Shown here: positions 2,861-61,554 of the stretch, in pieces
Layout: every line of letters starts with the position of its first letter
Numbering within the stretch: the stretch's first letter is position 1
Assembly: GCA_050084515.1 (NCBI GenBank)
Contig: CM114271.1
Location: 43,834,001 to 43,898,000 of the forward strand
Direction: 5' to 3'
Source of the DNA: Blasia pusilla
Taxonomy: Eukaryota
Length of the DNA stretch: 64,000 bases
Position numbers and translations under genes: made by a program
Notes under the pieces: generated by a model
What the model was told of the DNA's origin: nothing
Databases searched by the model: none
Seen by the model: only the letters and a program-made list of their open reading frames with translations

Positions 2861-3263
2861 AAGGCCTAAGCTATTGCTTTGATCTCTCTCATAGAACCAC
2901 AACTCAGGAGAAAAGCGAGAGGCACAAATCAGTGAAGGATCCTAAACGTTCTCCCACCCCATCTGTCTTGCGAATCTACATCGTCATACAACATACATCG
3001 CTGACATACCATACTCACATACATACATAACATAGACGAGAGCATACACAAGCACAAGTGTCCCACAACTGAAATCCATGAAAGATCTACTATCATAAAA
3101 CACGTATAAAATCACATACAATCGAGCCAAACCCACTCCACGATGGGAGAATCCAAGTCGAAGCTTGCGGGAACCACCATAGCCAAGAGCTCTACTCACT
3201 ACCAAGGCTAACTCCCAACGCAACAGGCTCAACTCGAAGAACTAACTGTTCTTTGAGTGCACT

Positions 3264-4295: not shown

Positions 4296-4758
4296 ACACT
4301 CCACACTATATCCTCCAACCTAAAAGCGGGCCCTACTGGAAAAGTCACCCTCAACTGAGTAACCCCCAACCCTACGTATGAAACCGCATCTCTATCTAGA
4401 CACTACGGCCCTACATAAGGTATGGCCTCTACTAGCACACTATACTCTACGACATAATCCGTATGGTCATGACAAATATCGTGCGAATCCACATTGTCAT
4501 ACAACATACATCGCTGACATACCATACTCACATACATACATACATAACATAGACGAGAGCATACACAAACACAAGCATCCCACAACTCGCCCCCCTAACT
4601 GGCGGTTAGGTCCCTCTAACTCCCAGGTAGCCCTATACATCTACTACATGCTAACACCTTTGTGGGTGCACGAATCAGAAGGTCGGGTGCTAGGTTGCCC
4701 CATTGTTAGTCGCACATATGTAATCCATATCATGCAAAGATCAAGTCATCTACCTCTC

Positions 4759-11800: not shown

Positions 11801-12913
11801 CGGTAGCACATAGGAGTAACACTACTCTGGGAATCAACGTCAACCCTAACAATGGGCGTGCAAGCAAGAAGCAACGATGGAGGGGATCCAAACACAGGAA
11901 GTCCAACAATAACCCTCCAATGGTAAATGGAAATCAAGGTAACACAATCCACCAAATGTGGCGCCCCTTGAATCCACAGAACCCACCACACAATTCTAAC
12001 GCAATAGCTACTCCGCCGCGGGTCGATGATATGCTAGTCTGACTCACAGCACCTGAAAATATCACCTGCATGGAGAGGCTACACCGTACTATGCGCTAGA
12101 GGTCCATCAACCAATAACCTGAGATGCATAAAGTGCCTAACACATCTCCGAACAACACCAAATGAGCTTCACCAGTGTGTACACTGGCACAGTTAAGAAC
12201 TCAGCAGTTAAGCGTCTACCAGGAAAAATAGCCCAAAGATGGCTGACTAGTTATGCAACACTCAAATCACAAATCCTGCAAAAACTGCCTCACGCCCAAG
12301 CTCCTTACTCTGCCTCTCACGCCCACTGGCCCCGAGATACCACGAGTTGCCTTGAAGCCTCGATTCAGATTCCCACCTCCAACATAGGCCACAAGCCACG
12401 AACATCCACGGCTGAGTACACAATCAGCCCTAACCAGATCCTACTGATCCACAATCGAAGCTACCATCGATCTACTCTAGTTCTTTGAGTGAAATCCGTG
12501 AAAGACCTATTGTCATAAAACACATATAGAATTACATACAATCAAGCCAAACCCACTCCACGATGGGAGAATCCAGGTCGAAGCTTGCGGGAACCACCAT
12601 AGCCAAGAGCTCTACTCACTACCAAGGCTAACTCCCAACGCAACAAGCTCAACTCAAAGAACTAACTATTCTTTGAGTGCACTCCACACTATATCCTCCA
12701 ACCTAAGAGCGGGCCCTACTGGAAAATCACCCTCAACTGAGTAACCCCCAACCCTATGTATGAAACCGCATCTCTACCTAGACACTACGGCCCTACATAA
12801 GGTATGGCCTCTACTAGCACACTATACTCTACGACATAATCCGTATGGTCATGACACATCTCATTGACAATTCAGACCAACAGCGACAGAGTAGTGAGGG
12901 GAGGAACACCGTT

Positions 12914-23250: not shown

Positions 23251-26200
23251 TAATAAAACTCTCACTAACACTTGATGAGAGAGAAGTTTACATAGTGGGT
23301 GATTTTACTATACGATAGTGGTGCACATACAGTGGATCAGAATGGCTCTTTACATTAGCGGGGCCTTTGAATTATGCTCCTCCTAGAACAGAAATGCCTC
23401 CTACCTAAGGTGAATACAATTCACGTCCACAAGACGTTGGAAAATGACAACTATTCACTCACACTTCAGACACATGCTATGAGTCACCATAATGACTTGC
23501 ATGTCCTATTATACCTCATGGTAGCGGATTGCTAGTGTCAATAAAGAAAGGCCACTAGTAATTAGTAACATGTTGATATCTAACAACGCTACCGCAATGA
23601 CAACCTCCATTAATAGTATCTCTATGAAACATAGGTTTATGCTTAATTAACCCTTTTGTAAGAATATTTTCCACCATATCATTGGTGTCACGATCAACTA
23701 CATGTATTAATCCCGTGTGGACCATCTCATCATTAAAATGGTCATGAATATCGATGTTTGTTTTCAATTCACTAAATCTTGTTCTATCTAACAAGGCAAA
23801 GCACTTTGGTTATCACTTTGGCTATTACAATCCTTCCTTGTTGATTCCCTATCTTACTTACAAAATTTCTTAACCTAGTTGCTTCTGTGAGAGCTCTAGT
23901 TGAAGCAATGTACTCAACTTCAATAGTGAATAAGGTAATAGATTTTTTGCTTCTTGCTTTCCCAACATATAGTCGTGTGTTTTTAATAAGAGATAGGAAC
24001 GAAAGGTTGATGTTCAATCCCCAATACTACAACTCCAATCAACATCAAAGTAACCACACAATAGTTATGAATTGCCTTTTCTAGTGTACACAAGTCCTAA
24101 GCTTGCAACCCTTTTAGATATCTAAAAATCCTTTTCATAACAACCCAATCGACTAGACCTGATTTAGCCACATATGTAGAAATCATTCTTTATGGTGGAT
24201 AGGGCGTAGGAGCCAACGGACTATCTTGAGTGTAACTTTGCCCCACCATGTCGGATGAGCTTGAGAATAGGTTCATTGTGTCAGGAACGTTATTTTTGAC
24301 AACTTTCCTGTTGAGGTCTCTCACAACCGGATGACTTGTTGACCAAGTCACCCGCCCTTGGTAACATGTGCGCGCAGGTTACCAGAAGGATAGCTATTTT
24401 TAGGGGAGGAGCCTTTTGGCTCTTCCCAACCCTATATAAGGGAGGAAGATGGCTTTCCCATCCCATCTTTCTCATGTTGGGCCATTGGAGCACCTCTCTT
24501 GTATGTGTGTGAGATAGGACTAGGGTGCTAGCGTCCGGATTCCTTGATATCATAGGGTGGACGAGGCTCGATATGCCGATGTTGATTGAGGAGTGGAGTT
24601 TTAGGCTGGGTGTGCCATTTTTCCTACTCTTTAATTTTACATGAGAAAGATGTCAGGGGGCTGGTGAAAATTCGTTGTTTGCAGGTAGATAAGCGAGTTG
24701 CCTCGGTGGGGAGCCCCTGGAGAACTAGGGTAGAGCAGTAGCATAGTGACGGACAGGAGTGCTCGGGTGTAGCACTCAAGTACAGTAGCGTTGAGAGAAT
24801 GGCGTAGTCAAAAAATGGGAAGGGGAGTATTTTGGTGCAAGAAACCATAGCCGTCGTGAGGGCAGCGAGGCTAGGTCAAGTCTAGGGTTAGGGCGTGGAC
24901 CTCCTTCCCGCATAGGGCGCGGCCCTCCCCCCTCCCCCCCCCTTTCCCCCCCTATTTCGGAACCCCCCCTGCATTAACTGCCCTGCCCATAGGGATGCGG
25001 GCCCCGTAAGTCCCCCAAGGGGCCATTAAGACCCATAGGGACATGGGCCAAGGGCCCAGTCCTTTTAGTTTCCCCCTACGTAGTAAACTTAGTTATGTGG
25101 TTCGGAGTGCCGTGGTCGGCGCTTTCCGGATGTGGTTGGTCAAAAGACGTGGTTGGGAGGGACGAAAGTGGCCGACAGGGTCGACGTGGTTGGAGGTACA
25201 GTCGACATGGTGGAGGCGCGGGTGACGTGATAGACGGGCATGGTTGTGGAGGAGTGGATGTTGACGGTGGAGTAGGTTGGTGGGCGTGATCAGGTTACCC
25301 ATTCGAGTCCCTTTTCTCGCATTTATCTTATGTGATTGAGAGTGTTGGGTATTGGGTAGTAGCTGGTGCTAGGTGGGTGGAGTAATGGTGACGAGTGTAG
25401 ACTCTTTTCATGTATAGCATGTTGGTGGATATACGGTGATTGCGGAGTAGGGGTCGCATGTATGACCCGAGAGTGTCGGTAGGTTAGGTGAGTTAGTGGG
25501 AGGCTCATGGTGAGCCTGAGTGTTGAGTGTGCGTGAGGTTGGGTGTGTCATCACGGGATTGACGTTAGCATAGGTGAACTAGTGAGGAGTGTGGGAGACT
25601 CTCCGTGAGTCTGAGTGCTTAAGTGGGTGAGACAGGGTTGTCATCATGGCGTTCTTCCAGGGTTCGGAAGAACGGGGTAGTGCCAGCAGTAGTAGTGGTG
25701 TGACACGGAGTGGAGTGAGATATCGAGGGGTTACGAGTGAGGAGCTACCGTGACAGCCATCTGTGGCTAGATCGTCATCACTAGACATCGGGTTTGGTGA
25801 TGAGATCGCAGACGGAGGCATTATCACTTGGCAGGAGATGGACGATATGGGCCATTGGGGCATGCGTTGTTTGTCGAGTGTAGTGGGCACCATCGACTTA
25901 GATGATTTTATCTCGGAGTTCGACACGTGGTGCGACTTCCCGGAGATACGGACGCCAACACGATTCAACCCTTTCATGGCATGGAAGGGGTTGTTCTAGC
26001 ACTTGGAGGGTCCTCTGATGGATGACTACATGGAGTTTCGATCACTATATTTAGTAGAGATCGATGCCTGGAGGATGTATTGGGCACCAGGGTATGTGTC
26101 CACTAGTGGTCGCGAGGCATATGATGGGATTATGAGAGGAGAGAGACCCACACCATCAGCCCGGAGATTAGATGGAGAGGAGGGCAGTGAGACTGGCAAT

Positions 26201-28559
26201 ATGGCAGAGACCTCTGGTGGTAGAGGGCCACCCAGCTTTAATCCCACAGTGGAGTTCTTACGACAGTTGGGGAAGAGCTACCAAGATGTACACACCGACA
26301 AGCTGAAGAGTCTACAGGATTTTCAGCGACGATCGGGTGAGAGTGTGAGAGAGGCATTCACGCGCATGAGGAGGTTGATCATTGCTACTTATGGAGTGAC
26401 TAAGGTGCATCAGTCCAATATTGGTATGGGGTTCTCGACCGAGAACTACAGAGGAGAGTCCGAGATGCGATGTTGATTCACACAGCGAAGCCTCCATTGA
26501 AGGTGGTCTTCAAGTTGTCTGAGCGTTTTGAGCTCAACATGAGTAAGGAGCAGGTAGTGACCGCTGGATTTTCTCGAGAGTCGATAGGTCTACGAGCGAC
26601 GGTGATTCTTTATGTGCCACAACGAGCACCTGTACCACGGGAGCGGGCCAATGTGCCCAAAGAGCAGGGCGGGTACCGTGAGCCTATGAGGCAACGACCC
26701 GTACTTGCATATGTTGCCCAACAGGGACCGATGTTGTCTTGTTGGACGTGTGGAGGGGCCCATAGGCAGACAGACTGCACACAACATGGGAGAGGACCAT
26801 GAGCGCCTCCGATTGCTCAAGAGCCACAGAGGATGGCCCCACTAGAGTATCAGTGTGACTATTGCCACAAATATGGTCACACTAGGGATAGATGTTTTGA
26901 CCTTCATCGAGAGGCACGTCCAGAGGTAGGCCGAGGGCTTGGGGGCAGTCGTACTGGAGGAGGTTGGGGGAGTTCTTCCTAGACGTGGTGCTAGAGGACC
27001 ACCACCAGCCAGAGGAGATAAAGCAGGAGCACCAGAGCTGGCACTTCTCTCACACATCGATCAGTTGGAGAAGAGGATTGCTGCCATGACGATGATGCAG
27101 CTCAGGGAAGGCACGAAGCGGCAAGCAGCTAGTGTGGCTCCAAATTCTACCTCTTACCCTGACCCGGGTGAGGATCTCGCTAGTATGGGGTTTATGTGTA
27201 GTGCAACTCAGGTTAAGGCGGTTGCAGTGGTGACTCGGGGTGTTGCAAGACGCACTGAGCCATCCAGAGGTCAAGTTGAGATTGACCCATTGTAGGAGAC
27301 CGATGGGCGGCAGGCCAAGGTTCCACAGTCATTCACATTGTTAGAGGCACTACACACACCATCGATGGTACCTCGACGACCAGCGGTGCCTACAGGTCAG
27401 GAAGGTATGTCGACGTCATGAGGAGTTGGAGTGAAAACTCCTATCTCGGCTCGAGTGGAGTCAGTGTCGACCATAGTGTTAGAGGTGGCCACCAGAGTGA
27501 GCCAGACTCCGCTATTTTCCGCCATAGAGTTTGCGACGTTGGGAGTTAGACCAGCTGAGGTGTTTTGACTGGCCGCCACATTGTGTGAGCGTGGAAAGGT
27601 GATTGCTTCTTGTTCAGAGGTAGTTGAGGAGGTGGTGGACTTGCCCTCAAAGCCGGTGCTCGAGATGTCTCCCACAGAGTCATGGCATGCGGCAGCGGCG
27701 ATGTTGGTAGATATGCCAGCTCGAACGGCCATAGAGCAAGCAGTGGTGACACCTAGAGTGGTGTTACCGGATAACCGAGTTGGAGTATTTTGCTTGGTTA
27801 GTTCGACGGGGATAATATACCACCTGGAGCGTGTCCTACTTGATTCGGGAGATCAACCCTTGATGTTAGGGAAGACGGCATGTTTAGCGTTGGGGTTACG
27901 GAAGGTCGACATTGAGCCTTGTCCCTTAATGATACAGACCTCGATTGGGGGCATGTCACCCACGCTGTATATGACTTGACAGGAAATAGTTTTCAGAGTC
28001 CAGCCAGAGCATGCGATGGATAGTGCTATGGTGCGCACACGTGCAATTATGACACCAGCTGAGTCGTACAATATGTTGGTGAGGAGTACAGTGTTATATC
28101 CCCTAGGATTCATCCTTGACTTCTGGGAGGAGACCATTGCTTCTTGGCGAGCGTGGTGGTCAAGTGACGGCCGGATGAGTCAACTACCCGTGCAGTTTGC
28201 GGGACGAGGTGGTCGATCATGAGATGAGTCTCTGACCACGTTGGCATCTTTCACATGTAGTGTTATCTGGCCAAGAGAGTTGTTGGAGGGGAACGCACAT
28301 GCGGAGGATATCCCAGTAGCGGATAGTCCCACAGAGAGACAGGCCATGGCGGGTGCCTCTTCCCATGTTGGCGAGAGCTCTTCACCATTGTGGGGTACGA
28401 CTCGAGAGCTACAGAGGAGTGCCGACGACCTTGTGAGGCAAGCGTGGAGTCATGCCTTTATCCCGGAGCAGCGAGAGTCACGTGGCGATCGAGCTCCTAG
28501 AGTGGAGACATTGACCCCACTGGATACCACACTTGTTGTGTGGCAGTGTCTAGAGGAGG

Positions 28560-30520
28560 CTGTTAGGGTGTTAGATCTCTTTGGAGGGATTAGCACCGGA
28601 TAAGCTGCAGTATTGCAGGCGGGCATACGGGTGCATTAGTACCTTTATGTGGAGAGAGATGAGATTGCGCGGCGAGTATCATTATGTCACATAACAAGAT
28701 TGATCCAAAGGTATCTTGAGTTGTTGCCGGTATCTATAGTACGGGGATATCAACATACACTACCCGCCGCGCGACATCTCTTTGGTGGGGGCACAAGATC
28801 TGGATAGAGTTAGCACCATTAATTTGGTGATTGTTGGATGGCCATGTCACGGTCATTCATCAGCTGGCCGAGGGTTTGGATTGCAGGATCCGAGGTCAAG
28901 GATATTTTGGGAGATGCTGCGAGTAGTATGACACTTGCAGGAGAGTCAGACATGTTCTCCGGCATACATTTTGGAGAACGTGCCGTTGTTGGGAGACAAT
29001 CGTGCACGTGTGATGACGAGTGTGCATCAGGTGAGGTCCTGGTTGGGACCTGCTGTGTTGTTAGATACAGCGTGAGTTGGATCACGCGCCCATTATCCAC
29101 AACTGTGGTGGATGAACTTCATACCATCAGAGGTACTGAGTCAAGCATACGATGTCCAGAAAGCACCACATATGTCGTGCGCCTACTCTCCTTGAACGTC
29201 AATCTCTAGTATTAAGGAAGCGTACGTTCAGTTGGACACGCTCTCATTGCCGACCTGCACCCAAACACGCACTCTCATTAGTCAGCTTTGGGTCAGTCAC
29301 TCATCCAACCCACCGAGTATTCTACTCAGCGTCTCATCAAGCTCAACCCTCCTTGCTTTCTAGGTTCCAAACACGGCAAGTCCTGCAAGACTTGGAACAG
29401 ACTTTCTGGTTAGTCCAGGAACCTAAAACGGCACTTACGCGCCTGGCGGTCCCAAGTGTCCAATGGACCTTGTGCGAGTTCCTAGCCGAGACCCAAGTAA
29501 TTGAGTTGCAGGTTGGAATCCAAGAGGGATGTCTAAAATCGCCTCACTAGACTTGGTTCAAGTTTTCAAGCCCAACTCCAAACTCTCGATCCGTTCCATG
29601 CCCTTGAGCCGCCCCGTGGCGCCCAAAGTGGGGTTTGAGTCCCAAACACCCTTGGAGACCTTCCCCCTTACTAGTACTTTGGGAGATCTCCAAACACCCC
29701 CTACCTTTGGAAAAAGATGGTCGAGCCCTTCATTGTGGCCCTCAACCTGATTCTACTTACAGTCGTTTTTGGGTTGTTTCTCAGCCGCTGCTTATGCGTT
29801 TTCAGAGATCTTTACTACGTTTGAACTAGCTTTCTATAAGCTTTCCAACGCGTCCTTACTCGTTCCAAACGCATCTTGGCGCTAAAAGTTATGGCCATAA
29901 ATATAGTCGGAAACTCTCAAACGCTGGTGGCGTCCCAAATCCGGATTCCTTCCTTTGGCAACCCACTTCCTAGACTTGACTCCTCTCAAGTCTTGATCCG
30001 CGTTTGGTCCAGGTTTCTCAGTCGCAACCACAACATATGAAACGCGAAGCCTCGCTTGCGTCTCGTCTCTTGTCTCTTCTTCGAGACCACTCCAACGCGC
30101 AAACCATCTTAGCGTGAGCCCGCTAATGTTCCGATGTTCTACTTTGGCACTCGGTTGGTCATGAGGATCGTGACAACATCTCATAGTGGATGCTATTTTA
30201 GGCTCAGGGCGTCGATCTCAGGTGGTGATGCGGGATGATAGACCACCGTTGGCGATGGCCAATTGGGTGGGGGAGTTGAGGGCAGCCTCACCTACGCTGG
30301 TGAGCTTCCCATCATCCCATGCCTTTCATCGGGGAGGGCCACGCATGATTTGGGATGAGGTGACCCGAGCAGTGGAGGAGCCTATTGCAGATGAGCGTGA
30401 GCGCGCCATGGGGTTTGCTATAGGTACTACGGCGGTGCCAGGTATGACTGAGGCATCCCGGAGACAGGTGTTGGGGCAGGCGGTGGACCTCACCTCTCTC
30501 ACATGGATAGTCACCCTAGG
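28560..30520 (+). pseudogene. C5 cytosine methyltransferase domain of copy B, interrupted by a solo LTR
   Basis: VRVLDLFGGISTG, LVIVGWPC, DPRSRIFWEMLRVV, YILENVP, then after the 29173-30175 insertion ERERAMGFAIGTT..RRQVLGQAVD. Confidence 0.88.
29173..30175 (-). mobile_element. ~1-kb solo LTR (family X) inserted in the MTase domain of copy B
   Basis: Reverse-complement homologue of 3264-4295. TSD ACATA/ACATC. Confidence 0.88.
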
Positions 30521-33500
30521 AATGGCTGAGGAGAGACGGATGCGAGTGTCATCCATGCCGTCACGTCCACAAGTTGGACCATTGCCTACAGGGTTTGTAC
30601 AGGCATTGGCGATTGCCGGATGAGGAGAGACAGGCACCCATGGACTTCTTGGGGCGTCGTTCGAGTGGAGAGTGCGAAGGCGGCCAGAGCAATACATGTT
30701 CATTTTTTGGATGTGGAGCATGGGGTAGGAGGTCAGAGTGGAGTGGTTGTTGCGGAGGTGGCTAGAGTTGCTACATAGCAACCAAAGCCGGAGGTTGCGT
30801 CCTCTTCGAGTGAGGTCACGATGAAGACTTGGGAGCTTGTGATAGGTCTCAAGTTGATAGGAGGAGAGCGACGGCAAGTTCATCGGTTTTTGAGAGGGCA
30901 TGTTAGTTGTTTTTCCTTCAATATGAGAGACTTGGGTACGCTGAAGGGTCTCGGTATACGGATTGAGTTGGCTAGTGATACGCCGATCTTTTGTCGACCC
31001 TACAGGTATTCTAATATGGAGCGAGCCTTGATTCAGAGTAGGAGTGAGGAATTTTGGAGGCAAGACTTGTGGAGTTATCACATGGGGAGTATGCATCCGC
31101 CACAGTCATGCCGGCGAAGAAGGATATGTATGGCAATTGGACGGATAGGGGGATGTGTGGAGATTACCGTCCTATCAACCGAAAGACGAGGTCAGACGTA
31201 CTCGGTTAGGGGTCGCCCATTCCAGTTACATACGGATTGGAGCATGTTGGGTCTAGGAGCAGTGCTTACTTATAGAGATGACAAGGAGAGGGAGTTCATT
31301 TTGGATTACGCAAGCCGATCAAACAATATTGCAGAGGCAAAGCACAAGTCCTACAAGGGAAAGTGCTTGGCTGCAGTGTGGGCCGTGGCACAATTTAGGT
31401 GCTATTTATTCGGTAACCCTTTAATACTTATCACTGATCATCAGCCGTTGAGGTGGTTGATGGAGTCCGACAAGCTTACGGAAAAGCTTGCCATGTGGGC
31501 TCTATTACTACAGGAGTATGAGTTTGAGGTGGTTCATAGGCCAGGTCGGGCTGAACTAGGATGCGGATGGATTGAGTCGTAACCCATATCCGAGTCAGAG
31601 AGACCACACAGGAGAGAAGATGGCACGGAGAGAAGATGGTGCCTGGTTGGCATGCATCTGCTTATCTTTGTTGGTTGACTATGGTAGGTCAGCCATAGGT
31701 GATGACTCTAGTGGTGGATTTGGATGATGAGTCTTTGGATCCGAGATCAGTGAGGAGGCGACGGGTGGTCGTGATATCCATGACGACGTGGAGGTTATGG
31801 AGTTCTTGCGCACTAGCGTCATAACGAGCATAGTGAGTGTTAGGGAGCGGGATTGGATCCTACAGAGAGCTAGGAGGTTCAGGTGGGAGGGGACTCATAT
31901 TTTGCGGGTATGGGGAGATGGTAGGATACGAATGGTACCTCATCCTTCCCAACAAGCATGTGTAGTATGACATGCCTATGAGGAGTTGGGGCATTTTGGA
32001 GTAAAGCGTACTTACAGCTTACTCCAAGTTGAGTATTGGTGGCGCGGCATGCATATTGGGGTAGAGCAATTAGTGGCCAGATATTTGGTATGTGAGTGCG
32101 AGTATCCTTCAATGCTCCCACTCCGCACTTACATCCTTTTCCGATTATGGGTTTAGGTTATTGGTGGAGTTTAGACTTTGCAAGACCTTTGCCATTGACG
32201 GGGCATCATCATAGGTACATTTTGGTCATGGTGGAGCATTTCTCCAAGTGGATAGAGTTGGTGGCACTATCGGACAAGGCAAGCAAGGGAACAACTTATG
32301 CGTTTCTAGATCGTGTGCTTAGTCACTTTGGTGCACTGGCGGAGGTATTGACTGACAAGGGTACCAAGTTCAGGGGCGAGTTTCAGGCCTTGTGTGATCA
32401 GGTGCTGATAGATCACCGCACCACGTCCACAGATCATCCTGAGGCGGATGGATTGGCGAAGAAAGTAGTACAGATGGTGAAGAGAGGATTACGTAAGTAT
32501 GGCTTGCAGTGGGGACAGTTGAGGGAGTGAGACCTACAGTTGCCATGGTTGGCTATGGGTTATCGCTTTAGTAGACATGCATCTTTGGCGTCATTTTTAC
32601 CGTACTTTTTGCTCTTCGGGAGAGATCCAGATTTACTTGCAGCTATTCGACGTGACATGGCGGAGGTGTTAGATCTTGATGATCCAGATGTGTGGGTATA
32701 AGCGTGTTCTCATATGGCGGAGATTTTTCGTAGAGTCATGCCTATGGCCTTTGAGAACTTGGCTATTGCTCAACATAGAGATACATTGAGGTACGCGACC
32801 ATTCGTGGAGGAGGTTATCGTCCAAGGATTAGGAGGTTTCATCCTGGAGATTACGTGTATTTACAATAGGCGGCATCCACGACCCTAGATATCACTGCAT
32901 GGCGCACAATCCTACGTGTGCACGAGGTATTACCGACCGAAGTCCTCTTGTTGGAGGGACGGGATGGTATGGTTTGGAAGGATCATGTGCATAATTGTGC
33001 GCCATGTCATCTTCTGAACGTAGACGGGATAGTGGATCCGAGCTTGGTAGTGGTACCTGCAGGCTTGAGGTGTATGTTGTGCGGATCTACGAGGGGTGCA
33101 GCCACCATGTTGGTATGTGATGGTTGTTCTCAGGGGTGGCAAATGTCATGTTTGACCCCCCCCCCTCCTTCTTGATGTAGTTCTCACATGACAATGGATG
33201 TGTCTGAGATGTATATAGGGTAGTAGGTCATGTCAGAGAGATATGATATTGTCTATCTGGAGTTAGGGAGATCCAACTGCCAGCTAGGGGGGCGGTTGTG
33301 TGATCTCCATATATATGTATGAGTTGATTTCTGTACATGTGTGGATCTACCCGTGTGTGGGGAAGATCAGTGTTGTGTGATGTAGATGTGACCAGCGATG
33401 TATGTTGTATAGCGATATGTATGCGCACGACAGTTGTCACATCTGAGTAGCCGATAGGCCGAGATCTATCGTGGATAGGGCGTAAGAGCCAGCGGAGTAT

Positions 33501-36500
33501 CTTGAGTGTAACTTTGTCCCACGGTGTCGGATGAGGTTGAGGATAGGTTCATTGTGTTAGGAAGGTTTTTTCTGATAACTTTCCTGTTGAGGTATTTCAC
33601 AACCGGGTGACTTGTTGACCAGGTCACCCGCCCCTAGTAACCTGTGCATGTAGGTTACCAAGAGGATAGCTTTTTTTAGGGGAAGAGCCTTTTGGCTCTT
33701 CCCAACCCTATATAAGGGAGGAAGATGGCTTTCCCAAGCCATCATTCTCATGTTGGGCCATTGGAGCACCCGTCTTGTATGTGTGTGAGATAGGACTAGG
33801 GTTTTAGCATCTAGGTTCCTTGATAGCGTAGGATGGACAAGGCTCGATATGTCGATGTAGATTGAGGAGTGGAGTTTTAGGCTGGGTGTGCTATTTTTAT
33901 TACTCTTTAATTTTGTTGGTGATCTCTATGTATATGTATGAGTTGATTTTTGTACATGTGTGGATCTACCAGTATGTGGGGAAGATCGGTGTTGTGTGGT
34001 GTAGATGTGACCAGGGATGTATGTTGTGTAGCGATATATATGCGCACGACAACCTTTCTACCTAGTGGGAGTGAGGTGAATGACCATGTGTTATTCAACC
34101 TCATAGATTCAAGCTCTTGTTCAATTTCATCCTTACAGTGAAATGCTTGCTAGCCAAAGAGAGCTTCTTTATAGGTCTTAGGTTCTTTAATATGGACATG
34201 CTTCTCTCATTGACTCAATAATCCATGAGTAAACTTCTCCTTCTCTAGATTCCTAGGGAGTGACTCTTAATGGGCTACATCATATTTCTGCAATAGACTT
34301 GAAACCCTTTTACATCTTCTTGTTCCAACACTTGCTTATGTTGGATTTTTATTGTTGGACTCTATTGAACAATTTTTGGCTTCATCTAAACTTGTTTCAG
34401 TACAACATCAAGAAATGTGTTATTTTTTGGAATCATAATAACATTCGTACTCGTGCTTGGAGAAGAAGGAATTAGTGCAAAAGCTTTACATCCAAAACTT
34501 TTAATGTGATTAAGAACTAGAGGGTCTTTGTGCCAAATCTCATAAGACGTTTTATGACCCTCCTCAACCCTTTTTGGTGCTCACGTTGGAAATATGTTTT
34601 GGAAGTTTTTTGCTCTTACTATCAATTCTCTATGCCTATAAGCCTTTCCAAGACTTCATTGTTCTAGCATTACAAGTATACTACAAGTCGAAGTTTTACT
34701 TTTCCTCTAAGTTACTCCATTATGTTATGGAGTGCGGGGGATTGGAAATTGAAATCGGTGGAAAGATATTCTCCTCCATTATCACATCTTATCAAATTCT
34801 ATTTTTTCTCCCTCACTGGTTGTCTACTAGAGTTCTTATAATAGAAACTTATGAAATACTTTGGATTTCTGCTTTAAAAGATACTTAAAAAAATCATCTA
34901 TGAAAGTTAAGAAATATCTTGCTCTGCTATATGCACATGTGTTTAAGAGTCCACAAACATCATAATGTACTAAGCCAAGACCATCTTCAGCCCTCTTACC
35001 ACCATCTTTGGGGAATTTTTCCCTTACTTGCTTTAATTGGATGGATGCGGTGCAAATAGGAAAGTCATCAATGTCTACTCCCTTGTTTTTGAAATGCTAT
35101 GAGTCTGTCTTGGCTGATGTAGTAGAGTTTCTCATGTCATAATCCATCATTAGTTGTTATAGGGAGAACAATGACGTCCTTGCATGTTGATTTTTTGCTT
35201 GATTGCTAAGGTGTTATGGATTCACCTAATATATACAACTTGTTCTTTGATCTACGAATTGCTATTTTTACTTCAACTTTGTTGTTGAAGGTATAACACG
35301 ATTCTTGATTGTGATGTGTCCTTTTACTTGATCAAATTGATCCACTAAGAATTAATTCCTCTTTAGACTACAAACAAACAACACATTCTGGGATAATAGT
35401 TTATACTCCATTCAACAACGTACTTGATGCACACCGATTGCATTCCTTGAATAAACAAGGTTGTTTCATCTCCCACATACACCATTGATCGCTTATTTAT
35501 ATAACTAGCTTGAAACCTGGTAAATGTGTTGAGGTCATGAGCCATATGTTGAGTAGCTCCTACATCCTCATACCAAGTTATATCTGGAGTACTCAAGAAA
35601 ATTAGGGTTGTTTCATAGACTATATAGCCCTAGACTCTTACTAGAGTCTACCTCTATAGCTTTGGACTTAGCTAGAGAGGCAGAGTTATAGTAAGTAAGG
35701 CAATAAAAACAACATATATCTGTAAGGAATGTGATATGCAACGTAGAGAGATGACAATATCTCTTTAAAGACCTGGGGCCTCTAGATTGTGCCCTTCCTA
35801 GAATAGGATCTTATCGTACACAAAGCAAACGAAATTCATGTCCAAAAGTATTGAGTCACTAACAAGTGACATCTGTCACTGACACATTTGACACATATGT
35901 TGTGAGTCAACAGAATGACGTACCTTGCAAACACATTTGTGTGTCAATTGCAAGCTCAGTGCTAGTCGTCATAGTTACAGTGACAAAACTGTTGTTCATA
36001 CTTGCAATTTTTTTTGTTTTGCGGGAGGGGGAGGGTGTGAAGTCAGAATGGAGTCATACAAAGTGGATAGACATTAATTGGCAGTCGCAACATACTAGCA
36101 AAGTAGTTTCTCTTGGCCAAAATGGACTCAAAACGGAGGCGTGTTAATACCTCAATCCCTTATTGTGAAAAGCCTCTAGAGATGAAGAATGGGCCCATAG
36201 GTTGGTGAAAAGGAAAATAAGGATGATTCATTGGTAAATGAGATACCGACACTAGTCAAAGGAAGATCCACTTGCTATTAGAAGGAAATTAGAAGGAACC
36301 ACTTTAGATAAGGGTATATGAAGCTATTCTTTCCATATTATGCTTATCCTTCAATATATCAAAGAGGATGAGAGGTGTTAAGAAACATTTCTACCTTGGG
36401 TTTCCTTAGAAGACGTCTCAATGAATGGGCAAGTATGGTAATAATTATTGTGGTGTAAGAGCGTGTGTTAGATGGCTCATCCGTGACTAAGAAATATAGA

Positions 36501-47832: not shown

Positions 47833-47932
<100 letters not shown>

Positions 47933-51796: not shown

Positions 51797-54700
51797 TGTC
51801 GTGCGAATCCACATCGTTGACATACCATACTCACATACATACATAACATAGACGAGAGCATACACAAACACAAGTGTACCACAACTGAAATCCGTGAAAG
51901 ATCTACTGTCATAAAACACAAATAGAATCACATACAATCGAGCCAAACCCACTCCACGATGGGAGAATCCAGGTCGAAGCTTGCGGGAACCATCATAGCC
52001 AAGAGCTCTACTCACTACCAAGGCTAACTCCCAACGCAATAGGCTCAACTCAAAGAACTAACTTTTCTTTGAGTGCACTCCATACTATATCTTCCAACCT
52101 AAGAGCGGGCCCTACTGGAAAAGTCACCCTCAACTGAGTAACCCCCAACCTTATGTATGAAACCGCATCTCTACCTAGACACTACGGCCCTACATGAGGT
52201 ATGGCCTCTACTAGCACACTATACTCTACGACATAATCCGTATGGTCATGACAATTGTCGTGCGAATCCACATCGTCATACAATATAGATTGCTGACATA
52301 CCATATTCACATACATACATACATAAAATATACGAGAGCATACACAAACACAAGTGTACCACAACTCGGCCCCCTAAGTGACGGTTAGGTCCCTCTAACT
52401 CCCAGGTAGCCCTATACATCTACTACATGCTATACATCTTCTTGGGTGCACGAATCAGAAGGCCGGGTGCTAGGTTGCCCCATCGTTAGTCTCCTATGTG
52501 TAATCCATATCACGCAAAGATCAAGTCATCTACCTCTCCTAAGTACATCGAGGACAAACCCACCTTCCAATAGGAACAACATCCATACGTGGAGTCAAAC
52601 ACATCATGTGCCAACCCCTAGAACACCGATCACACACCAACATACGGGCTGCGTTACCAGCAAACCCACACAACATGCACCTCAAGCTAGCACGTATCAT
52701 GGCTAAGCTTGGGTCAAGAGTACCATTCACATTTGAAAGATGACATGGTGCACAATTACGCACGTGGTCCTTCCAAACAACTCCATCACGACCCTCGAAC
52801 ATGAGAACTCCAGAAGCTAACATCTCGTGCACTCGTAAAATAGTGCGGCCTGCCGTCACATCCAATATTGTCCATGCAATCTGCTGCAAATAGACATAGT
52901 CCCCCACATGGAACCTACGAATCGATGGTCGATAACCTCCACCCCGAATGGTTGCATACCGCAAAGTATCCCTGTGTTGAGCAATGGCAAGATTCTCAAA
53001 GGCTGTTGGCATAACTCTACGAAAGAGCTCTGCCTGCTGATAACACACTCTCATCCACATCTCTGGGTCATCAAGGTTCACCACCTCACTAGACTTCCGA
53101 CGAATTGCTGCGGGCAAGTCTGGATCTTGGCCGTATAACTGAAAATAAGGTGAAAAGGAAGCCAAGGATGCTTGGCGATCGAACCTATACCCCATGGCAA
53201 ACCATGGCAAATCGAATATCCCAATCTCCAAGATGCGCGTCAGAGGCCATACTTGCGCAATGCCCTCTTCGCCGTCCTGAACCACACGCCAGCCAAACCA
53301 TCCGCCTGGATGATCTCGAGACGTGGTCCGATGATCAATCAACGCCTTGTCACACAAGACCTGAAACTCACCCTAAAACTCTGTACCCTGGTCGGTCAGC
53401 ACTTCAGCTGGTGCACCAAAATGACTAAGCACTCTATCAAGAAACGCATACGCCGTTCCCTCACATGCCTTGTCAGGTAATGCCACCAACTCAATCCACT
53501 TGGATAAGTGCTCCATCATGACCAACACATATCGATGATTTCGTACAGTCAACAGTAACGGTCTCGCAAAGTCCACACTCCAACGATAACCCAACCCCAT
53601 AATAGCCAAGGGGTGTAATTGTGGTGTAGGGGCATTGAATGATGCCCCCATCCGGTCACAAACCATACAACGTGACACCAACTGATGCACCTGAGTATGC
53701 ATGCCACGCCACCAATACTGACCAAGGAATAAGCTATACGTACGCTTTATCCCAAAATGTCCCAACTTCTCATGGGCATTTGCACAATTCGCTCTCTCTG
53801 AGCCAAATACGGCACTACTCGTACTCTACCATCCCCCCACACACGGAGAATATGTGTTCCCTCCAATCGATACCTCTTAGCACGTTGAAGAACACGGTCT
53901 CGCTCCTTGGCACTCACTATGCCTGGCACCCTACTGGTCCGTAGGAACTCCAACACCAACGCATCATCATGAATATCACGCTGATCCGTACCACCATCTC
54001 TAACCTTAGGATCTGAAGGCTAGCCATCTACCCTCTGACTAGAGTAAGATGTCATGTGGTCCTCCATACTAGAGTCCCCTAACCAACATAAAAAGGCGGA
54101 TGCATGCCAACCTCGCACCATCTCCTCATCAACCTCGCCATGCCATCTAGCCCCAGTTGCATCTTCTTGGCTAGTACATGGGTTCCTACTCAACCCATCA
54201 GCATCAAGGTTGGAAACTCTAGGTCTATGTACCACTTGCAAGTCATACTTCGTTAAGATAAGAGCCCACCATGCAAGCTTCCCTGTAAGCTTGTCAGACT
54301 CCATCAACCACTTGAGCAGCTGGTGATCAGTAACAAGGGTAAATTGTCTGCCAAACAAGTAACACCTAAAGTGTGCCATAGCCCACACTACTGCCAAGCA
54401 CTCTCCCTCATATGAACTGTAGCGTGACTCTGCTGCATTATTCGAACGACTTGCATAGGCCACCACAAACTCCATGTGCTCATCATCATGTTGTGTCAAC
54501 ACCGCTCCAAGTCCCAACCTACTCCAATCAATGTGTAACTGAAATGGGCGCCCTCTGATAGGTCTCCTCAAGATAGGCGCCGCCACCAATTGGGCCTTGA
54601 GCTCCACAAAAGCTCTCTCCTAATCATCTCCTCAGTGCCACTCTTGATCTGATTTCAGCAATTAGTTCAAAGGCTTTGCCATAGCACTAAATCCCTTCAC

Positions 54701-57700
54701 ATACCTCTGATAGTAGTTCGCCAATCCCATGAATGCCCGAACTCTGCTCACATCTACCGGACGCAGAATAAGTGCAATAGCCTCCACCTTTGCTTGCTGA
54801 ACTCCCAAACCACCTAGATAGATCACATGACCCAAGTGCTCAACATCCTCATGGAAGAACTTACACTTCCTGGATGCAAACGTAGACCATGAGCTTTCAA
54901 CCGCTCAAACATAATCTGCAAATGTATCTGATGCTCCTCCACCGTGTTACTGAATACCAAGATATCATCAATGTAACACCGAACAAAATCCAACCCTGCT
55001 AGGATCCTGTCCATCACTCTTTGAAACTCGGCAGGTACATTCTTCAACCCAAAGGGTCAGAATTTCCACTGGTACAAACAATCCTTGCCATGAGAGTTGA
55101 CACCCCAAAATGCTGTCTTGGCCTTGTCACTCGCCCGAATCGGCAATTGATGGTATCCTGCCCGAAGATCCAAAGTACTGAAAATCTTTGCCTGTCCCAC
55201 CACATCAAAGATCTCCTCAGGTGTAGGCATGGCATACATATTGGCCTTCGTTTGCCGATTCATAGGAAGGTAATCTCCACACATCCGCCTATCCGTGTAG
55301 TTGCCATGCATATCCTTTTTAGCAGGCATGACAGTGGCTGATGCATACTCTCTATGCAACAACTCCACTAATCCACCCTCCAAAAGGTCCAACGTGCTAC
55401 TCTGAATCAGGTCCCTCTCCATATCACTATATCGGTAGGGACGACGGAAGATTGGCGTATCACTAGCCAAATCAATCCGTATACCGAGTCCAACCAAAGC
55501 ACCCAACTCCTTCATGCTAAAGGCAAAACAACTCCTATAAGCACGTAGGAACTGTGTTAAGCGTCGTTTCTCACCACTCGTAAGCTTGGGCCCAAGTAAT
55601 GGCTCCCAAGTCTCCTCCACTGGCACACTAGAGGGAGAGGATGATGCCATTGGCTGCTATGCAACCCCCTCACAAGATGGTACACCCTTAGCTACACCAT
55701 CATCTGAGCAAATAATTCCTCCACCAGCATGAGCAACCAACTCCACATGCCCAGCCATAACATCTCATTTACTCCAAGGATGCAAAATACTACTTTCCTC
55801 GGCCCCAGCCGATGCCTCTACCATCTCGGTAGCCATCGAACTCATTACAAGGGGTGGAAGACCCACAAACATAGTCCGAAGTCGACGCTGCTCGGCCATA
55901 CCAAGACTCAAAATCCAAGTCAAACAATTCAGGTCCATGGCCTAACCCAACACATGACGTCGTGAAGCCTTAGAAATGGAAGCAACCGCTATCACGCCAG
56001 TAGCAAATCCCATTGCACGCTCTCTCTCATCAGCGTTAGGCTCCACCAACTGTCGCACATGAGAATTCCAAACAAGCCCGGGACCACCTTCCTATAGGCA
56101 TGTGACGAGGGAAAACTCATAAATTTGGGTAGTGCCATCCTAGGCTGGCCCACACAGTTCACCACTGCCATGGGTGACCGATCAATAACCCTCACCACTT
56201 GAGAAAGTCGCCCAGTATCCAAGATACTATCCACTGTAAGGCAAGGATCCTGCTGCAGTGCATCATATGCTCGACGTAGAACCTCCCTAGGCAAAAAGTT
56301 TGTCCACCACAAACGTGGACGATGTGCACGCGAGCCAACTCGCGCTGCATCCAACAACACCGCTGGTCCAATCCAAGACCGCACCTCATGAACACTCGCC
56401 ATCATCCGGGTCCAAGTGTCACCCAACAATGGAACATTCTCTAGAATGTAAGCTGGAGCATGTGCCTGATGAACCCGAAGATGTTGTAACACCCGTAACA
56501 TCTCCCAAAACAATCGAGACCTAGGGTCGTGTAATCCCTCATCACGACTAACACGTGTATGATCCTGACATGGCCATCCAGCAATCACCAAATCCACAAG
56601 ACCAACCCTCTCAAGGTCCTCCGCCCCCAACAATGCAATGTGTGACGGCAAAGCACGTTGGTACCCACAAATAGCTGATGGCGGCAACAACTCAGGATAT
56701 CTCCGCATCCACTGACCAATATGTCGGGATGAGACTCTCTGGGCCGTTTCATCTCATTCCACATACACGTTTCTCCGCATAGGAATATCGGCCTGCAACA
56801 CTGCAGCCAAACCAGTGCTAATCCCACCAAAGAGATGTAACACACAAATGCCCTCCGGCGGATACTGCCATACAATGGGTGTAGTATCCAAAGGGGATAA
56901 CCCAACTGGACCAGAAGTAGGAGTCCGCCATGGGGCCTCCTCTTCCTCGTGAGGTATAACAACCTCACACCAAGCCTCCTGCACCAGGCGATCAGCCTCC
57001 TGCCGTAGTGCACCGCCTGAACTCCAAAGTGGCACATCCAACGATGAGGATGCCATTGCTGCAAAACTAGGGACCTCCTCTACCTCCTCATGCACAGGAG
57101 AATCCATAGCATAAACATTACCCTCCAAAAAGTCTCTTGGCCAAGTGACTACTCCACTAAAACCAGCCACAGATGCTAACACTGTTGGGGAAGAACCTCC
57201 TGGTCGAGCCCCATAAATAAATCTCACAGGAACTTGGCTCATACGTCCATCACCGGACTACCAACCAGATCTATAAGATGCTGTCTCAGTCCAGTAATCC
57301 ATCTGAAAACCCATCGGGTACAATACTGCTCCTCCAACTAGTACATCATACGACTCGGATGATGTGACCACTACAGGTACTCCCAACCGGGAGCTATCAG
57401 TCGCATGATCTGGTCTCAACTGTACAGAGAACTTCTCCCGTGTCATGAATTGAGACCTATCATTGGATCCTCCAAGTGATGTTTGAATCTAGAATGGGCA
57501 AGGCTCAAGCTCTCACCTCCGAATACCCAAACCAATACATGCCGCTTTTCCCAACATCAAAGGTTGGGCACCCGAGTTTAACAAGACTCTATCTGGTCTA
57601 TACACCTGTCCTGTAGGACTCACCAATCGGAATATCCCACTCCGGTTGTCCAACATACATACACCAGGTGTAAGCCTCTCATGATCAATGGCTAGCCGGG

Positions 57701-60700
57701 CTGGTAATGCATCCATCTTTGTCGCTGTTGCCTGCCAAGTAGCATTGGTACTCAATGCTATACCTAACATAGAGGGTTGCTCCACTGCAACACCCTCATC
57801 CACCTCAGCTTGTGTAGCAGTAACACCCCCACGTTCCCACAACGTGGATGCTAGCTGAAATACAAGAGCTAAGTCAACTCCTAAAGCCATCAGCTCCGTG
57901 GCCGAAAACAATGGAGATCCCAACACTGAAGTTGCCATCCGCAATATTGCACTCGATGCTGCATTCGTGTCTACTACACGCAATGTAGATGCCTCAGTCC
58001 CCACTGTCGGCTCAATAGGCTACGTAGGAACCATGGATGGAGTCCTAAGCACCTCAGACAACAAGAATGACTGGGAAAGCCTAGCCTGCCTCCCAGCCTC
58101 ACCCCTCTGTGGGTCCAACTCCAGAGTAGCACCACGTGGCTTTGACGCTCGAGTGGCTCCTCTCGTAACTGCAGCTGATGCCTCAACCTGTGCTGCACTT
58201 GCCATATAAGAGAGATCATACCCTCCATAAGAGGTGGAAGCCCCTACTCCCAAACCTGATCTAAGCTGGATACTAGCCATAGTAGCCAACTTTTGCTCCA
58301 ATTGCTCAATCCTGGCAGCCATAGCTGACTCTGTCGTAGTGGTAGGGGTAGCCACTGTAGGCTCTCCAACCACTGGTCCACCTCTACCATCCCTACCACC
58401 TCTACCACCTCGGCCTCTCGGAGCTACTCTACCACGGCCGCGGCCTGATCTCAACTCTGGATGAAGATCAAAGCAACGCTCTCGAGGATGAGCTCGTCTC
58501 CCGCAATGATCACACTGAGTTGGGCCGGACTGAGGCCCGTCCTCCAAAGTCCATCTCCCATCCTCTTGGGGACAAAACTTCCTAACATGATTACCTCCAT
58601 ATGTCCAACATGACTATCCTTGCTGCGGGGCAGCAAATGAAGGCAATGGTCTCTACGCAAGTGTCCCTCTAGGACCTGACTGAGGTCGTGTGTATCCCCC
58701 ACGACTCCCACTACTACTACAACACTGTGAGATGGGCTGCTGAACACGAGAAGTAGTAGTTGTATCCCTACTTGATGCGGATGTCACCACTCTCTCCTTC
58801 ACCATGTTAAGCTCAATTTTCTCAAATAGAGCAAACACATAAGTCAATGTGGGTGAACCATCACTCATAAGAGTAGCATCACGTACCCTGCGGCGCAACT
58901 CTCTATCCAAGATCCCATACCAAAACTGGATTGCCTGAGCCCCGTCACACCCTGGGTAACTCAAATCAAGCGTCGCATACGAGTGTATGCCTCACGAAGA
59001 CTCTCACCAGTCTTTCGCTCAAATTCGTGAAGACTCCTCAACTTCTCTGTCTTCACTCCCTGATAGTTCTTCTTCAACCTCTTGAAGAACTCTGCAACTG
59101 GGTTGAACGATCGTGGGGCACTAGTACCTCCATTGGTATCCCCACTCCGGCTCGTACTCGTACCACTCAACGTCCGGTTGGTTGGCATAGTAAGAGCACT
59201 ACTACCAATACCACCATGGGTCATAGACACATAGCTTGGAGACCAATATTGTCTCCACGCCTCAATCTTAGCAACATGGTCCTTCCTAAACTCATGGTAA
59301 GCATCCATGGGTGGTCCCTCCAAGTGCTGAAACAACCCCTTCCAAGCCAAGAAGGATGTAAACAACGTGGCATTCCGCAACATCTGCATATCACACCACG
59401 TATTAAACTCCTGCATGAAGTCCTCCAACTCAATGGTGCCCACTACACCGAGTATTGTCGTGGGCCCTTCATGGCCGCATATATCCCGTCCATGTCCCAA
59501 ATCAATGGAGCTGCAACACTCGATAACAACGTAGAAGACTCGGTGTTTGGAACACCCTCGTCCTCCTCTTCATCAACCGTCGGAAGTGGAAAAGGTAGCC
59601 GAGACCTCAATCCAATCCGTGTGAAACCACCACTGTCCGCACCACGTTCCCCAACCAGACCACCAGACAGCTCCGTGATGACCAACGCCGATGCCGCACC
59701 ACCACAAATTACCACCACTAAGTAACCAAGTGACGTCGATGTCGTTGTACTATTCTAGCTCTACTAGCTATGGGTGTAGGCAACCTAACCTGTCAGCACC
59801 ACAAGAAGCCTCCCACGGTCTACTCGTCATCACTCCAGCCTCACTACCGGTAGCACACAGGAGTAATACTACTCTGGAAATCAGCGTTAACCCTAACAAT
59901 GGGCGCGCAAGCAAGAAGCAACGATGGAGGAGATCCAAACACAGAAGTCCAACAACAATCCTCCAATCGCAAATGGAACTCAAGGTAACACAATCCACCA
60001 AACGTGGCGCCCCCTGAATCCACAAAACCCACCATACAATTCTAACGCAATAGCTACTCCGCCGCGGGTCGATGACATGCTAATGGGACTTGCAGCACCT
60101 GAAAATATCACCTGCATGGAGAGGCTACACCGTACTATGCGCTAGAGGTCCATCAACCAAAAAACTTGAGATGCATAAAGCGCCTAACACATCTCCGAAT
60201 AACACCAAATGAGCTACACCAGTGTGTACACTAGCATAGTTAAGAACTCAGCAGTTAAGCTCTAGGAAGAATAGCCCAAATATGGGTGACCAGTTATGCA
60301 ACACTCAAATCAAAAATCCTACAAAAACTGTCTCACGCCCAAGCAAGCAAGCAAGCTTGCTTGCTTGCTCCTTGCTCCTTACTCCGCCTCTCACGCCCAC
60401 TTGCCCCGAGCTACCACCAGTTGCCTCGGAGCCTCAAAACGCCGAGACATGCCCCGTTCGCCATGCTTCGCTATGGAGAGAGGCCCAACCAGGGCGCCCC
60501 CAACGGGATAGGCATCTCCAACAACGAATGAGTCACCAACCAACCAGCCCCTCCGATCCGCTGTCCGCCATAGCCAGACCTTGAGCTAGTCCGCAAAATT
60601 TTGATTAGCAATTACTGCACAAATCCTCAACCAAAATTGAATCTGTTTCAACCAGAGTTCAATTGACCACCATAGCTATCTCTCCACAAAAAATCAGCTA

Positions 60701-61554
60701 CAACCAAGCTCTGTACTCCGAGCTAAAAATCAGACAAACTTGTTGTCCATACACCTCCAGAATCGCATATCCGACAGCGCTTCTGCCCAAATTCATGCAC
60801 GCAGAAATCCGCAACGCTCCACACACTCGAGCAGATAGCTTCACATGAGATCACAATACAAGTAGCAATAGGAACCTCTCACCTGATTTGGATGAACTTC
60901 AACAGAGCTTCCGCACTCCAAGCTCTCCACATCTGAAAACGGTTGAACACGAACCAGAATCTTCAATCCTTGATAACTTCCAACTCCCTTGACAAAATCC
61001 GGCGATCTAAAGCGCATTGGAAAGCTCTCAGCAAGGCGCTTCTTTCCCAACCAACCACATACCAGATTCCCACCTCCAACATAGGCCACAAGCCACGAAC
61101 ATCCACGGCTGAGTACACAATCAGCCCTAACCAGATCCTACTGATCCACTATCGAAGCTACCATCGATCTACTCTAGTTCTTTGAGTGAAATCCGTGAAA
61201 GACCTACTGTCATAAAACACAAATAGAATCACATACAATCGAGCCAGATCCACTCCACGATGGGAGAATCCAGGTCGAAGCTTGCGGGAACCACCATAGC
61301 CAAGAGCTCTACTCACTACCAAGGCTAACTCCCAACGCAACAAGCTCAACTCAAAGAACTAACTGTTCTTTGAGTGCACTCCATACTATATCCTCCAACC
61401 TAAGAGCGGGCCCTATTGGAAAAGTCACCCTCAATTGAGTAATCCCCAACCCTATGTATGAAACCGCATCTCTACCTACACACTACGGCCCTACATAAGG
61501 TATTGCCTCTACTAGCACCCTATACTCTACGACATAATCCGTATGGTCATGACA
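51797..61554 (-). mobile_element. Split-direct-repeat DNMT/PHD gypsy-type retrotransposon (copy C, most complete, same subfamily as A)
   Basis: A1 61187-61554, PPT 52366-52377, B1 52256-52365, A2 51886-52253, B2 51797-51885. gag 58020-59500 with CCHC knuckles and RGG, protease ~57250-57600, MTase 55900-56860, RT with YIDD 54823-55650, RNase H 54020-54607, integrase+PHD 52539-53765. About 16 differences in 368 bp between A1 and A2 by manual count. Confidence 0.95.
55900..56860 (-). pseudogene. C5 cytosine DNA methyltransferase domain of copy C (DNMT3-like motif order)
   Basis: ICVLHLFGGISTGLAAVLQA..YVE; DLVIAGWPCQD; DPRSRLFWEMLRVL; YILENVP; DAARVGSRAHRPRLWWTN; motif IX/X region after frameshifts. 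Confidence 0.92.

Follow-up and report, generated by a model that had tools for sequence, protein, structure and literature searches.

An integrase attachment site probably lies inside a hidden LTR in split-repeat Gypsy elements of Blasia pusilla that encode a cytosine methyltransferase

The 64,000 nt of Blasia pusilla contig CM114271.1 analysed here (positions 43,834,001 to 43,898,000, hereafter the window) contain three related elements of around 10 kb, termed copies C, A and B, each of which has its repeats in the split order A1..B1-A2-B2. Self-comparison indicates that copy A is approximately 90%, and copy B approximately 70%, similar to copy C, and that in all three a 12-mer lies between B1 and A2, in which sequences resembling the two ends of the element are joined through two extra nucleotides. 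This raises the question of what function an internal version of the joined termini might serve, and whether the two bases at its centre are arbitrary or fixed. The features on which the argument depends are the following.

51797..61554, minus strand: copy C, whole element A1-internal-B1-att-A2-B2, with degenerate ORFs
61187..61554, minus strand: copy C repeat A1, with left terminus TGTCA, TATA-like box, predicted start and R-U5, and end TTTCA
61350..61361, minus strand: copy C predicted self-primer (the transcript's first bases), 29 nt past the TATA-like box
61175..61186, minus strand: copy C predicted self-priming PBS, directly after A1, a 12-nt perfect complement of 61350-61361
55995..56753, minus strand: copy C C-5 cytosine DNA methylase (PF00145), between the protease region and the RT
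54023..55656, minus strand: copy C RT (YIDD motif) and RNase H region, with stops and frameshifts
52542..53825, minus strand: copy C integrase (H2C2, rve core) and C-terminal PHD finger, from Pfam
52366..52377, minus strand: copy C polypurine (G) tract, PPT, directly upstream of B1
52256..52365, minus strand: copy C repeat B1, putative 5' part of a hidden LTR, from repeat comparison
52249..52260, minus strand: copy C candidate internal att site CGACA-AT-TGTCA, comprising the end of B1, the spacer (52254-52255) and the start of A2
51886..52253, minus strand: copy C repeat A2, with the A2/B2 joint, a proposed cDNA end-to-end joint, at 51886/51885
51797..51885, minus strand: copy C repeat B2, around 21 nt shorter than B1, with right terminus CGACA
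2964..12856, minus strand: copy A, of the same subfamily as copy C, with a 4-bp target duplication (12857-12860 / 2960-2963)
12479-12489, minus strand: copy A predicted PBS, after A1
4470..4481, minus strand: copy A candidate internal att site CGATA-TT-TGTCA, from direct reading and pattern match
24191..34051, plus strand: copy B, of the other subfamily, 5'-truncated
24464-24476 and 24640-24652, plus strand: copy B predicted self-primer and predicted PBS, from complementarity
33285-33294, 33295-33432, 33435-33914 and 33915-34051, plus strand: copy B PPT, B1, A2 and B2, from repeat comparison
33428..33439, plus strand: copy B candidate internal att site CGACA-GT-TGTCA, from direct reading and pattern match

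Pfam searches of 42 frames in the window identified, in order, a C-5 DNA methylase, RT-RNase H, integrase H2C2, rve and a C-terminal PHD. The long open frames of a related locus, L008, encode an Asp protease, DNA methylase, RT, RH, H2C2, rve and PHD, and L073 has a similar series lacking a methylase match; the PF00145 domain is present in L008 as well as in copies C and A. The 42 window frames, which derive from degenerate copies, and eight frames of L008 and L073, which are long and open, gave no match to a tyrosine recombinase family. The D, D and E positions of the integrase are nearly invariant among 25 aligned relatives, and both the PR-RT-RH-IN order of pol and the DDE integrase are those of Ty3/gypsy elements, with the whole element reading gag-PR-DNMT-RT-RH-DDE integrase-PHD. 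Named protein relatives occur in the liverworts Calypogeia, Riccia and Marchantia, in Sphagnum, in Klebsormidium and Closterium, and in chlorophytes, with a Klebsormidium protein (P0061, 57%) among the integrase-PHD matches; no relative was found in the viral contigs searched. Family members were also present within contigs filed under bacterial and archaeal bins (L081-L086), which probably represent algal or plant contamination. In five distant members (L049, L053, L064, L074 and L075), around 1 kb of coding-like sequence seems to continue past the PHD; judged by eye on the DNA, this may be an adenine-methyltransferase-like domain, similar to one in the available text of a DAM-LTR preprint (10.64898/2026.05.21.726589).

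All three junction 12-mers reported in the initial annotation are present on the expected strands, that of copy C ending at 52260 and not, as given there, one base further on. The pattern CGAYANNTGTCA matches the window three times, against a mean of 0.19 matches per shuffle, and three matches were reached in 0 of 100 shuffles. As this pattern was derived from the same three copies, the stronger test is the position of each match: all three sit exactly at the B1/A2 boundary, and there is no fourth anywhere in the 64 kb. The two halves had been equated with the genomic termini, which is correct at both ends of copy C (TGTCA at 61554, CGACA at 51797), at the left end of copy A (TGTCA at 12856; its right end, AGACA at 2964, has one change) and at the single visible terminus of copy B (CGACA at 34051), the 5' end of which is truncated such that its A1 starts at around position 33 of A, at 24191. 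The spacer was said to be absent at the termini; this is evident in copy A, where the 4-bp duplication abuts the element. Copy C is preceded by GT and has no target duplication (flanks gagt on the left, taga on the right). Outside the junction the subfamilies have indeed diverged, as blastn aligns repeat A of copy B with neither of its counterparts in copies C and A, and similarity within repeat B is confined to its final 40 nt or so (82-87%).

To judge by these sequences, the 12-base junction is very probably the integrase att site of a retrotransposon. The best reading remains the one first proposed, in which the quasi-palindrome is the integrase substrate and would undergo a staggered cut after each CA; cleavage at these positions is suggested by the DDE integrase, the TG..CA termini, the 4-bp target duplications, the fixed 2-nt spacing and the end of one aberrant copy described below.

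Whether the spacer is variable, as had been suggested on the basis of the three window copies, was addressed using the best 80 of 479 confirmed metagenome loci and nine loci from genome bins, which by their content are probably eukaryotic contaminants, together with sequencing reads aligned to the window. Many of the metagenome contigs stop short of the repeats; a terminal B is present in 49 of the 80, representing 38 insertion sites when distinguished by their 3' flanks. A tally of intact junctions that includes the three window copies, with identical duplicates merged and two orthologous pairs kept double because they differ, gave a spacer of 2 nt in 31 of 31, these loci coming mostly from few, similar samples and two families and hence not constituting a broad survey. 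At one further site, L026, a deletion spans the junction. The larger copy set called for in the initial annotation therefore upholds both the spacing and the conservation of the junction. The spacer itself is GC in 17 cases, AC in six, AT and GT in three each, and TT and TC in one each, such that GC and its C>T/G>A decay products account for 29 of 31, with TT and TC needing a transversion. Each base of the spacer in CA-GC-TG is a CHG cytosine when read on the appropriate strand, and their decay (16/62) does not differ from that of CHG sites in repeat A (49/254; p=0.29). At two orthologous insertions (L052/L058 and L070/L066), one sample has GC where the other has AC, from which it follows that the spacer changes after insertion. 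We infer that the spacer is GC at insertion and decays thereafter through deamination of methylated cytosines at CHG sites, in place of the variability originally claimed.

Sequencing runs labelled as coming from the window organism (X1, X2, X3 and X21, the last consisting of RNA reads) also contain the GC form. G and C at 52254/52255 reach whole contig depth in X3, around 90% of it in X2, and 25% and 16% respectively in X1; they are the commonest letters at each position in the RNA reads of X21 (G 63/126, C 101/126). Spacer indels were absent from the differences listed between these runs and the window. Distant members, with 46-47% identity across the integrase-PHD region, retain the core palindrome CA-GC-TG (L073, L075, L083 and L084), which extends to a perfect 20 bp in L083 and to 16 bp in L084, and the spacer is GC in all four of L081-L084. 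The spacer is thus fixed in length and conserved in sequence. A separate idea, that it is carried into the flank in the manner of a coupling sequence, was not supported, as GC starts just 4 of 38 right flanks and duplicated flanks leave no room for it.

The sequences around the repeats suggest where the att site lies relative to the LTR. A G-rich polypurine tract occurs directly 5' of B1 in all 29 B1 starts examined, and all families inspected, the distant members included, have a G-tract at 50-180 nt 5' of the junction. Following A1 there is no tRNA-like site; instead there is a complement to a stretch 26-32 nt past the TATA-like box in A, of 12 nt in copies C and A, 13 in copy B, 11 in L001, 16 in L014, 15 in L042, 15-16 in L008 and 13 in L081. 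This predicted self-priming pairing of 11-16 nt recurs in five sequence families (C/S1, S2, B, L008/L081 and, more weakly, L084), with the letters differing between families and the pairing kept. A match of at least 11 nt was found at 6 of 12 A1 ends tested, the other six having decayed, and an 11-nt match arose at only 2 of 3200 random positions; no convincing site was identified in L073, L075 or L083. The first bases of the predicted RNA fold onto the PBS (z -2.5). The RNA reads, which are stranded, extend over B1, the junction and A2 to the position of B2, where they could stem from the near-identical B1. They did not locate the transcript start or 3' end, and a cluster of 32 read starts at 52093 in X21 was not assignable to a transcript end. 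A deletion in L029/L079 runs from the end of the PHD to around position 177 of A2, near the predicted transcript start.

In ordinary LTR chemistry, PBS and PPT signals set the ends of the cDNA, here the start of B and the end of A. With a PPT before B1 and a PBS after A1, the LTR would be B-GC-A and the cDNA [B-GC-A]-internal-[B-GC-A]. B-GC-A is therefore likely to be a single hidden LTR with the att site inside it, only one complete unit of which is present per integrated element (A..B-GC-A-B), as opposed to the two terminal LTRs of the canonical structure. Lying between the PPT and PBS boundaries, and copied through RNA, B1/A2 is probably not the joint formed on circularisation, contrary to its initial description as a 'circle junction'.

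The ends of integrated copies differ from those set by these signals. Among ten elements with both ends available, six have an exact 4-bp duplication (window copy A, L004, L006, L014, L031 and L038), and in L001 and L042 three of the four bases match; window copy C has none, and L056 has an imperfect 8-bp duplication instead. The duplications flank A1 and B2, not the PPT/PBS-defined LTR ends. Their presence beside TG..CA termini is as in Ty3/gypsy elements, and their varied sequences, along with the loss of the spacer, fit DDE strand transfer. The A2/B2 joint is less precise than the att site, departing from its commonest form at 9 of 21 sites (window copy B, for which there is no modal form, being omitted), whereas the att spacing departs at 1 of 30 (p=0.0007). 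Extra bases at the joint correspond to the start of the PBS (AT in L057 and L069, ATT in L076) or to the end of the PPT (CGA in L018 and L021), and such imprecision would be expected if the joint were formed anew in each cycle. A2/B2 is thus likely to be the true end-to-end cDNA joint. In L040 (3361-3878), A2 is followed by a full copy of the PBS and then by the first half of A in inverted orientation, the end of which coincides exactly with the CA of the inverted att (TGACA). This probably arose through fold-back of the PBS tail and subsequent cutting at the inverted att, an end at CA being as expected if the integrase cuts at a sequence and not at a DNA end.

Not all copies extend this far, as 20 of 38 sites end at the first B, without A2-B2, and the five of these with a visible 5' end are all A-internal-B; the permuted form A-B-A-internal-B was seen in none of the five. 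One A-internal-B copy, L056 (2351 and 11410), lies within another LTR, where its 8-bp duplication adjoins a left flank with GC as its last bases. In L081, L082 and L008, the PBS begins with the same five bases as B (seven with the preceding CA), and in S2 with the same two; in the former family, this microhomology may guide end joining.

The explanation we favour, at a probability of roughly 0.6, is that the att site has moved inside the LTR, such that the cDNA is joined end to end, CA^GC^TG is cut on both strands and both resulting ends integrate. Transcription would start in A1, and the RNA would prime itself after A1 in the manner of Tf1, as the covarying complementarity suggests. Standard LTR chemistry would then prime the plus strand at the G-tract before B1, giving linear [B-GC-A]-internal-[B-GC-A], the ragged ends of which would be joined head to tail, in a 2-LTR circle or a concatemer, to generate the A/B joint. 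The DDE integrase would cut CA-GC-TG of the upstream LTR after CA on both strands, producing two standard ends with recessed CA-3'OH and 2-nt 5' overhangs. Opened at the upstream palindrome, an end-joined molecule would give exactly A-internal-B-GC-A-B, and strand transfer would account for the outcome visible in the genome: TG..CA termini, no spacer and a 4-bp duplication. For copies with only A-internal-B, the proposed origins are 1-LTR circles, linear cDNA cut twice, and recombination of B with B at a later stage. Passage through an end-joined intermediate is somewhat favoured over its absence. The ragged ends of the cDNA are a plausible reason for the inward move of the att site.

The intermediate is the component most open to challenge. 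Two equal att sites on a circle should also yield A-B-A-internal-B, so its absence from the five informative copies counts against a circle and leaves a bias for which the favoured explanation has no account. It would be accommodated if no end-joined circle were formed and, instead, RNA running through A2/B2 gave rise, via template switches on the A and B repeats, to an over-long linear cDNA with an att near each end that integrase trims; the A2/B2 joint would then be inherited, with the att and its cutting as in the favoured explanation. That B1, the junction, A2 and the B2 position are all covered by RNA reads is in keeping with this, subject to the origin of the B2 reads, as is the finding that 12 of 21 joints have the modal form, with two copies sharing +AT, so that the joint may be inherited. 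Trees of 21 and 19 copies are star-like and do not separate inheritance of joint variants, and in heavily decayed copies B2 is nearest to its own B1 in 5 of 10 and 1 of 7, a weak test. The PPT before B1 and PBS after A1, however, set the cDNA ends at the start of B and end of A, and PBS or PPT bases occur within the joint variants. Furthermore, minus-strand synthesis begun at the PBS transfers, in LTR chemistry, to R in A2, from where the downstream B2 cannot be copied. Overall, the linear alternative seems unlikely, while being the most serious of those considered.

The other alternatives concern the junction or the architecture. Were B1/A2 remade in each cycle with two arbitrary bases, like the spacers or coupling sequences of IS3/IS30-type circles, and then cut by integrase, the three different spacers of the window would be explained, as would TT and TC, which are not simple decay products of GC; this is improbable given the recurrence of GC in 17 of 31 junctions, in all four of L081-L084 and across families at 46% identity, its predominance in X3, X2 and the RNA reads, and the GC/AC differences between orthologous insertions. 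Still less probable is a DIRS/Ngaro-type mechanism, in which an encoded or borrowed tyrosine recombinase recombines the junction with the target: the order A..B-A-B is that described for DIRS-order elements (PMC5890265), but the scanned frames contain no match to a recombinase family, the DDE triad is conserved, and the elements have varied 4-bp duplications and TG..CA ends. Finally, the structures might be by-products of ordinary LTR elements rearranged after insertion, by nesting or recombination, or mis-assembled, as the B-ended half or so of resolved loci (20/38) and the collapsed circular assemblies of L073 and L081 could suggest. This is the least credible of the four, since the duplications adjoin A1 and B2 and not the PPT/PBS-defined ends, the order recurs in many loci and families, including L082, in which the B repeats of A..B-A-B are 100% identical, and it has been published for Klebsormidium (PMC5890265).

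Split direct repeats are also characteristic of Ngaro, PAT and TOC1 elements, in which the internal junction equals the joined termini and a tyrosine recombinase is used. The window family shares the order A1..B1-A2-B2 and the internal junction with these, and differs in having a DDE integrase, a protease region and 4-bp duplications. A PHD finger is present in REM1, a Gypsy element of Chlamydomonas. Another green-lineage Gypsy element, Gypsy-7a_cRei of Chlamydomonas, has a PHD before the integrase and left and right LTRs with subparts, with neither a split order nor an internal att stated in the passages of the preprint that describe it (bioRxiv 2022.06.16.496473). The closest published architecture is that of KnitGypsy-Dnmt3 from Klebsormidium nitens, described as having Gypsy domains and 'repeats the same as a DIRS retrotransposon' (de Mendoza et al. 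2018, PMC5890265). Both it and the window elements combine Gypsy pol, a cytosine methyltransferase and DIRS-like A..B-A-B repeats, and by these features they belong together; with no recombinase found in the scanned frames, and DDE and 4-bp duplications present, the window elements are not members of the DIRS order. The split-repeat Gypsy/methyltransferase architecture is hence already published, and that article's passages on the element and three supplementary text files contain nothing on the junction, target duplication, PHD or mechanism.

As regards priming, Tf1/Sushi and plant Tcn1 elements are self-priming, with a PBS complementary to sequence after the TATA box (PMC6317226), and the window elements likewise have no tRNA-like PBS, a PPT and a DDE integrase, along with a predicted self-complementary PBS. 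Tf1 cDNA is reported to retain single-stranded tails (PBS around 50%, PPT around 20%), which fits the extra bases at A2/B2 (PMC11042837). However, these relatives are LTR-internal-LTR elements with att at the LTR ends, whereas the termini of the window elements come from a site inside the LTR, and a PHD was matched in place of the chromodomain of Tcn1-type chromoviruses. Precedents for the proposed cut come from retroviruses: in vitro, HIV-1 integrase cuts an LTR-LTR palindrome after CA on both strands, the DDE triad being needed (PMC1905944), and foamy virus integrase cuts a palindromic LTR-LTR junction to leave a 2-nt 5' AT overhang, the geometry predicted here (PMC1180852); cleavage of retroviral 2-LTR circle junctions is also described in PMC4372172. 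In retroviruses, though, it is the joining of cDNA ends that creates the palindrome, and circles lie off the main path, whereas in the window elements the palindrome is genome-encoded within the LTR and apparently the sole att. By analogy, we propose that the element works like a self-priming Ty3/gypsy element, with an integrase acting as retroviral integrase does on a 2-LTR junction.

LTR elements and retroviruses integrate via the ends of linear cDNA, 2-LTR circles being mostly regarded as dead ends or a reserve. This usual scheme cannot yield the structure observed, as the integrated ends differ from those defined by the PBS and PPT. It is evenly balanced whether, in a lineage of LTR retrotransposons found from chlorophyte-like algae through to mosses and liverworts, an end-joined 2-LTR circle is obligate and integration proceeds by a restriction-like cut at a genome-encoded palindrome in the LTR. 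If so, it would be a natural case, on the main path, of the circular-precursor model once proposed for retroviruses; split direct repeats could arise from ordinary LTR chemistry through relocation of the att, and this would be a testable account of how Ngaro/PAT elements acquired that order. No description of an internal att, a hidden self-priming LTR or an end-joining route was found in titles and the opening parts of abstracts, a scope that lay outside Repbase, theses, subscription journals and supplements, and PMC3783388 contained none of the terms looked for. The proposed route would account for an architecture noted without a mechanism in 2018, and the family provides a short, defined substrate (CA-GC-TG, in a palindrome of up to 20 bp) and near-intact copies for studies of junction cleavage. 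This abundant bryophyte and algal repeat family will be overlooked or wrongly annotated by LTR finders that depend on two terminal LTRs.

The window contains several other repeats. Three related solo-LTR-like inserts of around 1 kb are found at 3264-4295, 29173-30175 and 48213-49222, the first interrupting A2 of copy A and the second lying inside copy B. Each is flanked by a 5-bp duplication, exact in one case and with one mismatch in the other two; this, together with the fact that only their terminal bases resemble A or B, rules them out as solo A-B units. On the right they terminate in GCGCACGACA, as repeat B does, and on the left they start TGTC(A/G)CGA, a hint that capture of an LTR-LTR junction from such a family may have given rise to the internal att. 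The third insert is contained in a canonical Gypsy element at 43059-50042 (minus strand; protease, RT, RH and integrase), the LTRs of which are around 353 bp long and 96% identical, with the duplication CATCA. At 14673-14716, a lone stretch of 44 nt that ends in CGACA matches the last part of repeat B in copy B's subfamily and is by its sequence the decayed right terminus of a further copy, and a fragment at 50061-50459 is 67% similar to the protease-to-methylase region of copy B. At 39606-40166, on the plus strand, a frame with a DnaJ domain (PF00226) is probably an exon of a host gene.
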